Source: Eledone cirrhosa (lineage: Eukaryota). Taken from it: a stretch of DNA of 64,000 nucleotides. The DNA lies in the NCBI GenBank assembly GCA_964016885.1, contig OZ024747.1:84692001-84756000 (forward strand), written 5' to 3'. Shown in pieces: positions 42,204 through 47,699 of this stretch. Numbering within the stretch: the first letter of the stretch is position 1; each line of letters opens with the position of its first letter. The notes beneath the pieces are model-generated. The model worked only from the letters and a program-made list of their open reading frames with translations, searched no databases and was not told where the DNA came from. The position numbers and the translations under genes are program-made.

Positions 42204-43957
42204 CTCCACACAGTTAACAGTGGGACAACTTCTTTAATTCTTTATATATTTTAATGCAGTCGTAGTGGTCGTAGTGTTTCATAAAAGAGCTGGCCTGAGT
42301 AATAGCAAGTAGCACAATATAACTCTATGACATAGCGCTAGGGAAGGAGAAAAGGTTTATGATCGAGAATGAGGTGTACCAGTCGAGGAGGGGAACAAAC
42401 CGGCACGATAGCTGAAATGTAACTGAAGGGAACTGGAACAAGAAGGGAACAAGTAGTTGAATACAAAGTTTTATAGTATGAGCTTAATTTCACGAGCAGG
42501 CTGTTCCATTAATCGAGTTATTTATAACACTTGTTGTCTGAACCGACAGAGGTTCAACACCCACACATAAACATGTATGTCTATATGAACGTGTGTATGT
42601 ATATGAGTATGTATGTATTTTTTTGTGTATGTAATGTTTTTACTCATGTAATATATGCATATAAGAAATGTATATATTTAATTGTTCAATTACATGTGTA
42701 TTGATGAAGAAAGCAGATGTGTATCCATTTCTATTCTGCTGTTTCTAAATTTTTAAGTCTATGTTCTTTTTTTTTTTTGTATCGTATCTTTAGTACGTAA
42801 TTTGTCATTTGATATTTTATTTTTGTTGATATACTTGTTTGTGGGTGGCCGAATTTGTAGACTGTGGGACAATAGTTTATAGTATAATGGTACGTATCTT
42901 GATGCACTCTGTTTAAACTACACCCAACCCTACATTGGCTTTTGTTCGTCCTGCTTCAATAAAATAACTGCCATGTCACAATATAGGCCAAGAACTTCTG
43001 ATGGAGATTCAGGGCATTGTCTTGGGCATTTTAAACCTGGTGGAGCCAACCCCTCTTCAAGCCTGAACACAGGTGATTGCTTCCAAAGAGAGAGAGGAGG
43101 AGAAAAGGAGAGAGGGAGAGAGAGAGAGAAAGAGAGAGAGAGACAGAGGAGGAGGAGACAGAGAGAAAGATATATATATATATATATATATATACGTTAT
43201 TCCGGGTTGAATCGGAGGTTACCACAGTAAGTAAGGTACTCAATACATAGCAGAGTATAACAGTTTTAATATAAATGAATGAAACAGTTCTAGTCCTGTA
43301 GAATCTCTTCTATATTAAAACTATATATATATATATATATATATATATATATATATATATATATATATATATATATATATATATAGTGAAAGAATGAACT
43401 CGCTGCCTAACTATGGAAACATCTTGTTGAGTTAAACAAAGCCGTTCGTTAAAACTATCCACAATACAGAGTACTCACAACCTCTAACTGGATTACCTAT
43501 AACGATAACTTGTTTGTTACCCCATATATATATATATATATATATATATATATATATATATATATATATATATATATATATATATATATATATATATATT
43601 GAAAGGATAACAAGGATGATTGGTTACTCCTTCATTACATTTATTACATTTATTACTCCTTCATTACATTTATCAAGGTTTGATCTGTATCGATCCTACA
43701 CGACTCAATGATCGGCAGCTCGACGGACCCTTTAGAATGCTATAAGAAAATGTATAGCCCTACACCTCATCACAGAAGTGAACCTAAACATCGAGTGCTC
43801 TCCCGGGTGAACCTGCAGTAACTCCAAGTTACACCCCCTGGATATATATATATATATATATATATATATATATATATATATATATATATAAACGGAAAAA
43901 ATGAAACGAAATTTCATTTCTCACTCTTAGTACGGCTGTTACTTAAATATAAGTATG

Positions 43958-46653
43958 TTTAGCAGGGTAGATGATTGATGGTCGTTAGTTGCCAGTGTGG
44001 TAAGTGATAGTATCCTCGTTGGATTATCTTGTTGACATAGACGTGAGGGAAGGTCCCTCGATCTATTTACCATCTATTTACAATATTCCTTTCGTCAGGT
44101 CGCCAATTCCAGCAGCATGGTTTATAGATGTTATTGAGACACGAGTAACATAATAATGATTTCAACAGCCGTAATTAGAGATGAAATGTATGTTTATTTT
44201 TGATGTAGTACAAACAATGTTTGTTAACTTATATGGTTGAAGTTACAGATAAAAAGAGGTTACAAAAGGGAATGTGCCATTGTGCCGTTAAGCCGGCGAG
44301 GCTAGGGTGCAAAATCTCACCGTTACATTATGCGTGTTGCTGGCTCGAAGTTTCTGGTACAAGAGAGAGATTCTTCAAATCTTCGCGGGGAATTTCTTCC
44401 TCAGGGCGCGTAGGGATACATCCTCTTCTACTGGCGCTGATTGGCTGAACTGAGCCAAATCACGCACAGAGAATGTATGTGAGCCCGCGGAATGTAGGTC
44501 ACTACATCACCTCCGACCAGATTTTCAGCCGAAAATCGATAACGAAGAAACCAAGGACCCACATATTATTGAATCAGCAAGAACAAATGCTGAAAGAACA
44601 CATCAGTGAAAAAATAATTGAGCAGAAAGATTCATGCAAGAACAAAAAAAAAAATTAGGCGCGACGGGCCGTGTTGAGCCGCTGTCAAATGACTAGCTAT
44701 TTTGTAGTTTAAACGAGACCCTCAAGGGCCTACCAGAAAACAGATAAAGTCTGACATGGGCGAAGTTGCTGTTCTTGCATTAAATGTTAATGGTAAGCGT
44801 TGTACCAGTAGCTGTGAACGAAGCTATTATGGTAGTTTACCAGTGCTGGTGAGAAAATGATGGCCCCCAGATGTATTGTCGAATGTGCTGTGGAGCCAGG
44901 AAAAAATGGCTGGTTGCTTTGTAAAGAAAAAAAAGCAAGTTTAATCTGTAGGTGGGCTGCAGTGTAAATTCCATAATTCGGGCGAATCCACAGAAGTGGC
45001 TGAAATATTGACAAGTCCAGTTCAATTTGTTGCTTTCCCAGCGAGTCGAGCAAAAACAACAAGACGGATGGCCGTCATGGACGATCAGTGTGCAACGAGA
45101 TGCGAAGCTGTTTGAGTTCAGCTGCAATTAGTATTCTCGTGTTGCGGTGCCTGTTTGAATCCAGTGGATTAAGCTCTGTGAGCTGCTAGCATGTGACAGC
45201 ATCTCAACCAGGTGAAAAGGGACTCGCAGAATATTACGTTTGAAGAACATATACCAAGAACAACATGTTGGTGTGTGATAAAAAAAAATGTGTGCATATG
45301 CAGGCATGTAAAACAGCAAAGAATGTGAATGAACAAAAACCATGAGCAAACAAATAGCAAAAGAGCACAAAACAAGTAAATGCATTCTACAAAGAAATAT
45401 GTGAATGTAACAAACTGATAATTCAAAGTCAATCTAGGGGAGCAGAGAAATTGCCCAATAAGTTCAAAGTTTTTCAAAGTCAAATAGTTCACACATCACC
45501 AGTGTACAGACACTAGTTCTATTTGAAAACTGAAAAAGAAGTTTGTTAATGCCGTTAGGGGTTAGATGTATGGTGTTTTTGTGAGATTTCGTGGCCATCT
45601 TGTGTGGCATAAGGTTGTGTTGTTTATTGTTAAAGCAAAGTCAAAGAATCTTCTGTAGAGTAGCGGTCACCAAATATGGCAGGCACGTCTGACGCCATAA
45701 TGGTGAGAAAACTACTGTCTCAATTTCTCGCGTCCCTGTGGTAACGAGACAGAAGGTATGGTGGTTGCGTCGGTAAAGTTACAAGCCGTTTTGAAATTTC
45801 CTATGTGTGGTGGTTTGCGTCGGTAAGGCTATGAAGCTGCCACTCACTGTTCCCCGTATTGGTCAGTGGTTAAACAACGCTGTCGCTGCTGCTGTCGTTG
45901 TTGTTGTCAAGTGTAGCCATGACATTTCGGTAGCCATCTTGAAATTTTTTCGTGGCGAAAAATTCTTTGAAATACTGCCAATTTTTCAAAAAAATTTTGA
46001 AAGGAATATATTGAATTTTCGCAAGTTGCGAAAAGGTTGGCAACGTGGCAATAAAAGTTCAACTGAATGAAAAAGAAGGGCTGCGTTAAATTCTTACGTC
46101 GGTCACCACTTTAGCAGGGTAGATGATTGATGGTCGTTAGTTGCCAGTGTGGTAAGTGATAGTATCCTCGTTGGATTATCTTGTTGACATAGACGTGAGG
46201 GAAGGTCCCTCGATCTATTTACCATCTATTTACAATATTCCTTTCGTCAGGTCGCCAATTCCAGCAGCATGGATTATAGATGTTATTGAGACACGAGTAA
46301 CATAATAATGATTTCAACAGCCGTAATTAGAGATGAAATGTATGTTTATTTTTGATGTAGTACAAACAATGTTTGTTAACTGGTTGAAGTTACAGATAAA
46401 AAGAGGTTACAAAAGGGAATGTGCCATTGCGCCGTTAAGCCGGCGAGGCTAGGGTGCAAAATCTCACCGTTACATTATGCGTGTTGCTGGCTCGAAGTTT
46501 CTGGTACAAGAGAGAGATTCTTCAAATCTTCGCGGGGAATTTTTTCCTCAGGGCGCGTAGGGATACATCCTCTTCTACTGGCGCTGATTGGCTGAACTGA
46601 GCCAAATCACGCACAGAGAATGTATGTGAGCCCGCGGAATGTAGGTCACTACA
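43958..46653 (-). mobile_element. Non-autonomous gypsy-type LTR element. LTRs 46110-46653 (5') and 43958-44506 (3'), PBS about 46096-46108, PPT about 44507-44520, TSD TATG
   Basis: About 545-bp direct repeats with few differences. Reverse strand has TGGTGACCGACGT (tRNA-Trp-like PBS) and CTGGTCGGAGGTGA (PPT). TATG on both sides. No long ORF. It splits a hammerhead-family repeat. Confidence 0.9.
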
Positions 46654-46866
46654 TATGTATACGTACATACATATATGTATACAGACGTACACTAGTATGT
46701 ATATATATATATATATATATACATGCACACATATATATATATATGTACGTATGGATTCACCGAACATTTATTATAATGCCAGATGTGTTTGTAAACAAAC
46801 ATCCCGAATTAAGCCGTACAGTGTCTAGCAACCATCGTTGCTCATTTTTTCAACACTGACAAAGGA

Positions 46867-46908
46867 ACGCTGTACTAGCTTCAAGCTTATTAGCTATCGT
46901 CAGCAACA
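46867..46908 (-). ncRNA. Minimal hammerhead motif (GAAG variant)
   Basis: Reverse complement: TGTTG CTGACGA TAGCT AATA AGCTT GAAGC TA GTA CAGCGT. Confidence 0.55.
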
Positions 46909-47299
46909 TATACCTTCCTGCCAGATGGTTGAACGTCTGAAAGTATATACTTTCCTTATGCATATTAACGGCTGAGCAGCCTAATTTGCATATCGAATGA
47001 GTTAATCGGCCGGGGTACTGAAAACAATAAACCGAAAAAATGAAACGAAATTTCATTTCTCACTCTTAGTACGGCTGTTACTTAAATATAAGTATGTATA
47101 CGTACATACATATATGTATACAGACGTAGACTAGTATGTATATATATATACATACATGCACATATATATATATATATGTACGTATGGATTCACCGAACAT
47201 TTATTATAATGCCAGGTGTGTTTGTAAACAAAAATCCCGAATTAAGTCGTACAGTGTCTAGCAACCATCGTTGCTCATTTGTTCAACACTGACAAACGA

Positions 47300-47342
47300 A
47301 CGCTGTACTAGTTTCAAGCTTATTAGCTATCGTCAGCAACAT
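47300..47342 (-). ncRNA. Minimal type I hammerhead ribozyme motif
   Basis: Reverse complement: TGTTG CTGACGA TAGCT AATA AGCTT GAAAC TA GTA CAGCGT; about 433 nt from the previous copy. Confidence 0.68.
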
Positions 47343-47699
47343 ATACCTTCCTGCATGTATGTATATATATATACATACATGCACATATATATATATGTGT
47401 GTTTGTTTACAAACACACCTGGCATTATAATAAATGTACGGCTTAATTCGGGATGTTTGTTTACAAACACAAATGTTCGGTGAACCCATACGTACATATA
47501 TATATGTGTGCATGTATGTATATATATATATACATACTAGTGTACGTCTGTATACATATATGTATGTTCGTATACATACTTATATATATATATATATATA
47601 TATATATATATATATATATATATATATATATATATATATATATATATATATATATATAGAGAGAGAGAGAGAGAGAGAGAGAGAGAGAGAGAGAGATTG

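Follow-up and report, generated by a model that had tools for sequence, protein, structure and literature searches.

A 433-nt hammerhead repeat family in Eledone cirrhosa with 3' ends at two fixed internal sites, and its possible copying by a Penelope-like element

Analysis of a window of 64,000 nucleotides of Eledone cirrhosa DNA (contig OZ024747.1) and of the repeat family it led to showed that the copy ends of a 433-nt, hammerhead-bearing unit are set by internal initiation of the Penelope type and not by the ribozyme, a feature more informative than the tandem hammerheads described in the initial annotation. A Hydra-type Penelope-like element (PLE) may well copy this non-coding repeat of about 430 bases, via a circle, with its reverse transcriptase-endonuclease.

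Locus architecture

Both blastn and a hammerhead descriptor identified 1.75 head-to-tail units at the locus with two minus-strand type I hammerheads 433 nt apart, in agreement with the arrangement originally proposed for the sequence with an LTR insertion removed. On the minus strand a 5'-truncated unit (47350 to 47030) comes first, followed by a second that runs from 47029 to 46654 and continues from 43957 to 43891. The features are:

4828..4968, minus strand: 3' fragment of 141 bp, without ribozyme, ending at site A on (TA)n
41625..42037, plus strand: separate copy of another subfamily, with an inverted head and a plus-strand hammerhead (core 41789; C10.1.A11.1; GUU triplet)
43842..43890, no strand: (TA)n tract on the left side, abutted by the element's 3' end
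43891..43957, minus strand: 3' end of the downstream unit, at fixed site B, about +276 past the cleavage site (site from 96 copies)
43958..46653, minus strand: non-coding LTR element, a later insertion that does not belong to the unit
46654..47029, minus strand: remaining part of the downstream unit
46867..46909, minus strand: type I hammerhead 2 (core from 46903; U10.1.U11.1; A15.1G at 46879; predicted cut after 46873)
46873..47305, minus strand: predicted monomer, 433 nt, uninterrupted, between both predicted cleavage sites
47030..47350, minus strand: upstream unit, 5'-truncated about 45 nt ahead of the cleavage site
47300..47342, minus strand: type I hammerhead 1 (intact CUGACGA/GAAA core from 47336; predicted cut after GUA at 47306)
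47351..47588, plus strand: head-to-head inverted piece with small rearrangements, ending at fixed site A (about +226) and followed by (TA)n as far as 47657

Hammerheads are indeed present at 47300 and 46867, where they had been annotated, but these positions are the ends of stem I, and cleavage is predicted after 47306 and 46873. The inverted partial unit said to follow was mapped as listed. Both further copies that had been reported also exist; however, the one given as 41625-42035 is itself a head-to-head pair, and the one given near 4795-4960 is the ribozyme-less fragment at 4828-4968. The units are split by a 2.7-kb LTR element, which sits inside a 4-bp TATG duplication and has LTRs (about 43958-44506 and 46110-46653) that are 99.3% identical; 95 contigs of sequencing run X20 depart from the window sequence at 43958. 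A supposed link of this element to Ajax/Helenus proved wrong against the published descriptions. No frame of 150 aa crosses the units, GC content is 0.357 in 46001-48000, and the 64-kb window contains no tRNA genes.

The downstream hammerhead has GAAG in place of GAAA, and at this A15.1G position the window differs from most aligned contigs. The locus therefore lacks the two consecutive complete hammerheads that Li et al. take as the mark of an active copy, whereas other loci of the family, such as L005, L085 and L101, contain two. The initial annotation proposed that the family could produce a linear or circular RNA of about 430 nt; the sequencing runs listed as matching the stretch included no RNA run, and of further runs two putative RNA runs gave no aligned contigs and two of unspecified kind did, a result neutral on expression. 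Because one of its two cores is mutated, monomer release at this locus is doubtful; intact arrays exist elsewhere, and A15.1G weakens this locus, not the family.

The hammerhead motif and its relatives

A 32-nt core pattern had 11,684 exact matches in the genome and none for the reversed control, and the motif is therefore not due to chance. The core was intact in 24/30 copies selected via a motif outside the ribozyme. Stem III, built around a palindrome, has one or two pairs, and stem II has U.U at its base, or C.A in the 41789 copy, which also has the triplet GUU in place of the GTA after which cleavage had been expected. We examined covariation in 163 copies, which were left after removal of 36 same-place duplicates and 6 satellite copies from 205. 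The stem I variants ATGTTG/CAGCGT and ACGGTG/CATCGT were found as annotated, and the claim that this stem stays paired was upheld: pair 3 of stem I was paired in 157/163 copies, with five pair types (shuffle mean 87), and two-sided changes occupied 54 cells over 68 pairs, compared with 18.9 in shuffles. However, the number of pairs with a two-sided change was 10 compared with 6.4 in shuffles (9/500 reached 10), and slid controls gave 7-12. The covariation consists of few subfamily-level events.

The Rfam hammerhead was absent from the best 150 of 177 matches for the whole window and from all 65 matches at E<=10 for 46800-47400, and the predicted hammerhead stands on the descriptor plus covariation. 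The fold z score of -5.2 weakened to -1.4 and -1.8 once the TA-rich part was excluded. Most of the Rfam matches listed were to miRNA families, below threshold and on TA-rich hairpins.

The family fits the animal non-LTR retrozymes, an already published class, as had been suggested together with a need for dimer cleavage; the minimal stem III and the covarying stem I support both suggestions. Each unit has one type I hammerhead, and the repeats are short and head-to-tail (dimers to multimers), non-coding and low in GC, with no LTR, PBS or PPT. The consulted parts of Cervera & de la Pena 2020 (PMC7229834) and of the Li, Clavereau & Pollet 2026 preprint (10.64898/2026.07.22.740005) likewise describe low-GC, non-coding tandem units of a few hundred bases with one type I hammerhead each, occurring as monomers to long arrays, with no LTR, primer site or frame and with PLEs co-existing. 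In these same parts copy ends are not mapped, whereas in the present family they fall at two constant internal sites on (TA)n and 5' inversions are common. The Xenopus retrozymes are described in the preprint as homologous to pLTRs of known PLEs, while no homologous parent was found here, and the RNA of the present family is a prediction from DNA. In axolotl (PMC7229834), helix III of HHR_Amex1 is a single pair closed by a palindromic tetraloop, and helix II of HHR_Amex2 has a U.U mismatch at its base, each like this motif; both cleave efficiently only as dimers, and the dimer of the U.U stem II hammerhead cleaves and yields circles. Unlike in either axolotl motif, both weak features occur here in one core, and a minor subfamily has C.A plus the GUU triplet. 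Literature on retrozymes, octopus hammerheads and non-autonomous Penelope elements of cephalopods contained, among the matches listed, neither this family nor a mapping of retrozyme ends.

Copy ends and a candidate helper

The genome contains at least 25,485 copies of the family, which stand alone, in tandem arrays or as head-to-head pairs, including arrays of 9 and of 20 or more units, with a unit spacing of 406-556 nt outside this locus. We mapped ends on 96 hammerhead-bearing segments, after removing TA-only matches from an initial 152. The 3' ends of 83/96 segments fell in two 20-nt windows, at +226 and +276 from the cleavage site (9% expected), with a TA run within 30 nt in 68 of those 83, while the 5' ends were spread over all ten bins; 56/96 segments were longer than one unit. 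Among copies chosen by a motif downstream of the cleavage site, 29/30 crossed that site and none began there, with no pile-up of ends. Head-to-head inversions occurred at 32/81 loci, with inversion points that differed at every locus. In animal non-LTR retrozymes target duplications, where present, exceed 4 bp; those seen among 83 insertions here comprised one of 9 bp at L099, checked against the empty site, and one candidate at L150; most insertions sit in (TA)n, where duplications are unreadable. Fixed internal 3' ends with a tail, 5' truncation, inverted heads and an AT-rich target are all traits of Penelope-type insertion. Since ends lie at fixed internal sites and do not pile up at the cleavage site, the template was likely RNA intact across that site, either a circle or an uncut multimer. 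As the ends are not set by the ribozyme, the usual template cannot have been a cut linear monomer, barring seamless jumps by the enzyme.

The same genome contains a Hydra-type PLE with open frames of 927-968 codons, whose translations carry RWK, DKT and CxCX5C motifs and a C-terminal endonuclease; it targets (TA)n, and its clade was assigned by comparing motifs with PMC8557442. There was no Pfam match for the translations. This candidate helper shares the unit's insertion marks, in that its 3' ends fall at two sites on (TA)n (21/41 and 20/41) and 5' inversions occur at 28/71 loci, but it has its own, different terminal repeat, and similarity between unit and helper does not extend past TA repeats. 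Two direct unit-element junctions were found (L031 and L032). Both came from the 23 best-hit loci, none occurred in 81 unbiased loci or in 71 helper loci, and the helper link is thin. Like the Hydra-clade PLEs (Craig et al. 2021, PMC8557442) and the lizard PAc (Frangieh et al. 2024, PMC11167929), the unit has (TA)n targets, a hammerhead that precedes two alternative 3' ends (tail), and tandem and inverted insertions; unlike them, it encodes no protein, and it has no detectable sequence in common with the two Hydra-type families examined. We rejected the unit as the pLTR of Hydra family 1 or 2, both of which have their own, different pLTR and hammerhead, and also rejected a family-2 element as a chimera partner at L099, where the unit had inserted into that element with the 9-bp duplication.

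Possible routes of copying

In the proposed mechanism, a transcript spanning two or more units would form a double hammerhead through the palindromic loop 3 and be cut after GUA, and a host ligase would then close the monomer into a circle. The Penelope protein would nick (TA)n DNA and start cDNA inside the RNA at +226 or +276, and the cDNA would run back over the sealed cleavage site, ending at random points, anywhere from part of one turn to several turns on; priming on the opposite DNA strand would give the head-to-head piece. Two-site internal initiation has been demonstrated in vitro for the lizard PLE (PMC11167929). Counting against this mechanism are the single core in 85/96 segments (two or more in 11/96), the combination of U.U and minimal stem III in one core, and the end anatomy, with which a circle and an uncut multimer are both compatible, as well as the normal insertion of lizard PLE ribozyme mutants (PMC11167929) and the cleavage of only 1/9 Xenopus dimers (10.64898/2026.07.22.740005). 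A more specific version, which we consider rather unlikely in its entirety, is that a parentless invertebrate retrozyme hijacks the Hydra-clade Penelope protein in trans, that its copies are a record of reverse transcription in rolling-circle mode, begun at two fixed internal positions on a hammerhead-made circle, and that the two junctions reflect the same enzyme switching RNAs. If true, this would be direct genomic evidence of the enzyme that moves animal retrozymes, and would provide a ready in vitro pair; in the published work, as far as consulted, both the moving enzyme and the circle as template are still proposals. The family offers a test system within one genome: a predicted RNA of 433 nt with its two predicted start sites, a target that is known, young copies in the tens of thousands and a candidate helper whose frame is intact.

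It is also quite possible that the template of Penelope-type mobilisation was read-through RNA, transcribed from a tandem locus already in place and left uncut, with the hammerhead weak or acting at another step, no need for a circle, and long arrays produced by unequal crossover. An uncut template accounts equally well for the fixed 3' ends, the read-through of the cleavage site and the similarity within arrays, where tandem neighbours differed by a median of 2.9% (26 pairs, 15 loci) compared with 8.3% for random pairs (600 pairs), and in vitro the lizard PLE acted predominantly on uncut RNA (PMC11167929). DNA-level amplification does occur in this genome, as shown by a 2.2-kb satellite at L035 that includes a unit together with flanking sequence. 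However, the largely intact core and the stem I pairing kept across subfamilies suggest that activity mattered in source copies, and retrozymes of coral, mussel and axolotl alike yielded circles (PMC7229834).

Less probably, an autonomous PLE family that was not found has the unit as its terminal repeat (pLTR), and the copies are 5'-truncated insertions of that family, an unlikely reading for which the hammerhead, two-site tail, inversions and (TA)n targets speak as pLTR traits (PMC8557442, PMC11167929). Many such families exist in the genome, and the genome searches scored top candidates only. Against this, what lies upstream of a unit is the previous unit, 0/81 unbiased loci had a same-strand PLE frame running into the unit's 5' end, both Hydra families have distinct pLTRs and hammerheads, and more than half of the segments exceed one unit length. 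A reverse transcriptase plus GIY-YIG frame flanked by the 433-nt repeat was likewise found at 0/81 unbiased loci, which leaves room for a rare parent.

Finally, a DNA-level repeat (a miniature inverted-repeat element or minisatellite) with a chance or relic hammerhead motif is very improbable and already largely refuted by the polar end distribution: head-to-head copies do resemble terminal inverted repeats on TA targets, and the Rfam match is absent from 46800-47400, but inversion points are locus-specific, the 3' ends alone are fixed, 49/81 loci have no inverted partner, and the duplication verified at L099 is 9 bp long.

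Anatomy of the window locus

A descriptor search of the window identified 10 type I hammerhead-like motifs, of which three belong to the unit family, the copies of a ~433-nt non-coding, retrozyme-like repeat with a predicted type I hammerhead.

Unit-family hammerheads in the window (descriptor search)
47336, minus strand, unit-family hammerhead
46903, minus strand, unit-family hammerhead
41789, plus strand, unit-family hammerhead

The two minus-strand cores confirmed the initial annotation's head-to-tail pair spaced by about 433 nt, as 433 uninterrupted nucleotides separate the predicted cleavage sites (47305-46873). 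The minus-strand element starts at 47350, spans 1.75 units and ends at 43891, abutting (TA)n, and the inverted partial unit proposed beside it was recovered as a head-to-head piece (47351 to 47588) terminating on (TA)n, so that both outer ends are 3' ends. A further copy proposed near 4.8 kb does belong to the family (4828-4968), but is a ribozyme-less 3' fragment. Because the 46903 copy carries A15.1G, only one of the two sites in the window dimer would be cut well.

The array is interrupted, inside a 4-bp TATG duplication, by a 2,696-bp LTR element (43958-46653, minus) that appears young and non-coding, with 99.3% identical LTRs, TG...AA ends and no frame over 108 codons; a primer-site-like stretch after its 5' LTR presumably resembles a tRNA-Trp site. 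Microsatellites are abundant in the window (G000:C7:84692001-84756000), which comes from a 3.0-Gb assembly of 1,796 contigs; its repeats tentatively suggest an octopus-type mollusc. The seven other hammerhead-like motifs (17470-, 26806-, 29563+, 52392-, 61340-, 61469+ and 63122-) represent about four other families, and those at 61-63 kb resemble the terminal-repeat (pLTR) hammerhead of a second Hydra-type Penelope-like family. A 970-codon frame encoding RT, RNase H and integrase domains also lies in the window (8655-11567, plus), as does a LINE-like RT carrying zf-RVT that a single stop interrupts (34121-37132, plus).

Copy ends and the template of unit copies

Exact genome matches numbered 11,684 for a 32-nt core pattern, 25,485 for a 25-nt pattern across the cleavage site, 20,653 for a pattern lying just downstream and 6,936 for one upstream, with none for the reversed controls of all four. 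Ends were mapped in the first 100 core matches on contig C1, less 5 overlapping loci and 1 locus-edge segment, giving 96 hammerhead-bearing segments at 81 loci. Most segments (85/96) had one core and 11 had two to five; 56 of the 96 exceeded one unit. Elsewhere the family forms arrays with 9 units and with 20 or more. The 3' ends lay at +209-228 (41) or +259-278 (42) relative to the predicted cleavage site, with 12 elsewhere and one, in a divergent copy, at the cleavage site itself; TA runs followed 35/41 and 33/42 of the two main classes. The 5' ends were dispersed across the unit, and 32 of the 81 loci were head-to-head. Median divergence was 2.9% between tandem neighbours (26 pairs), 3.5% between inverted partners (30 pairs) and 8.3% between loci. 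One locus (L035, G000:C4:349899000-349908900) is a 2.2-kb satellite, each repeat holding 1.3 units plus flanking DNA; it is an old insertion amplified at the DNA level.

As the 96-segment sample had required the core, we retested read-through in copies chosen downstream of the cleavage site. An intact 3' half of the ribozyme lay upstream in 28 of 30; of the other two, one reaches 9 nt beyond the site and the second terminates at +12. Of the 131 copies sampled in all, 126 cross the site, and the three that end between +2 and +12 are close to the random-truncation expectation. The cut linear monomer is therefore not the usual template. Both the retrozyme class and the proposal that it has a Penelope origin are already published; our literature search, supplements aside, yielded no paper describing this family or mapping the ends of retrozyme copies, and the family adds mechanistically useful anatomy to the class.

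Conservation of the predicted ribozyme

The core consists of the CUGACGA and GAAA boxes, a U.U mismatch at the base of a four-pair stem II capped by an AAUA loop, a CUAG palindrome and the GUA triplet, and its stem I has six pairs and a bulged extension; Rfam gave no match to it. The U.U, at U10.1.U11.1, is the best-tolerated mismatch at that position (PMC3088659, in part) and is shared with axolotl HHR_Amex2, which the available text of PMC7229834 describes as cleaving at 22% per hour alone and well as a dimer. The minimal stem III implies that the unit hammerhead would cleave as a dimer (PMC4209133, accessible portion).

Core and stem III were intact in 24/30 copies chosen by a motif outside the ribozyme. 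Stem I pair 3 in 163 distinct copies was U.G in 94, A-U in 35, G.U in 21, C-G in 4, U-A in 3 and unpaired or other in 6, against a shuffled paired mean of 87, although these counts reflect few independent events and most copies were chosen via the core. The counts agree with the proposal that stem I varies yet stays paired. Across 68 pairs in 42 diverse copies 96.7% of cells were paired and 54 carried two-sided changes versus 18.9 in shuffles, although two covarying hairpins could alternatively be corrected at the DNA level. Counted by pairs, however, the excess was weak (10 versus 6.4; slid controls 7-12). The monomer fold scored z -5.2 linear and -5.5 as a circle, much of this stability coming from the TA-rich part. 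An octamer, ATGCAAAT, in the upstream part of each unit (window about 46987-46994, minus) is intact in 36/42 copies; read post hoc, it may be a putative internal promoter, because a snRNA-type promoter is reported in newt satellite 2 (PMC2220036, in the part available). Three other loci (L105, L134, L118) represent other hammerhead families, one with U.U at the stem II base and a different stem sequence, and one a relative of the unit family with canonical G-C there.

A candidate helper and the mode of copying

Across all readings, we hold it highly probable that a Penelope-type enzyme moves the family. Among the 30 best-hit loci, or 23 once the window and six satellite repeats are set aside, two show a unit immediately abutting the truncated 5' end of a coding element, a Hydra-type Penelope-like candidate helper. 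Of 20 long copies of this element that were retrieved, four hold open frames of 927-968 codons with RWK, DKT and CxCX5C motifs, marks of the Hydra clade (PMC8557442, as excerpted); Pfam gave no match to these frames, and 59 relatives, mostly unnamed, share 31-46% identity. On (TA)n its 3' ends fall at either of two sites separated by about 190 nt (21/41 and 20/41), and 5' inversions at 28/71 loci (L038 overlaps L049) match the unit's 32/81. The pattern also resembles the two-site internal initiation that a lizard element was shown to use in vitro (PMC11167929, in part). A firm link is opposed by zero unit-helper junctions in 81 unbiased unit loci and in 71 helper loci, and by no shared sequence beyond TA repeats. 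An apparent unit junction with the second Hydra-type family was rejected, because there the unit had simply inserted into that element and made a 9-bp duplication.

In our leading model, to which we give even odds, the dimer RNA would be cleaved by the hammerhead, the cleaved unit RNA ligated by the host, and the unit copied by rolling circle by a Hydra-type protein starting at +226 or +276. The main rival, somewhat less probable, retains Penelope-type copying with uncut multimer RNA as template; it is favoured by ribozyme mutants of the lizard element that insert normally (PMC11167929, available text) and by cleavage of only 1/9 Xenopus dimers (10.64898/2026.07.22.740005, in part).

The helper carries its own pLTR, as does the second family, and its own predicted hammerhead, which has the variant first box CUUGAGA instead of CUGANGA (L052:4930-4990, one helper copy, and family-1 pLTRs); the variant occurs in nearly all of 41 helper pLTR copies.
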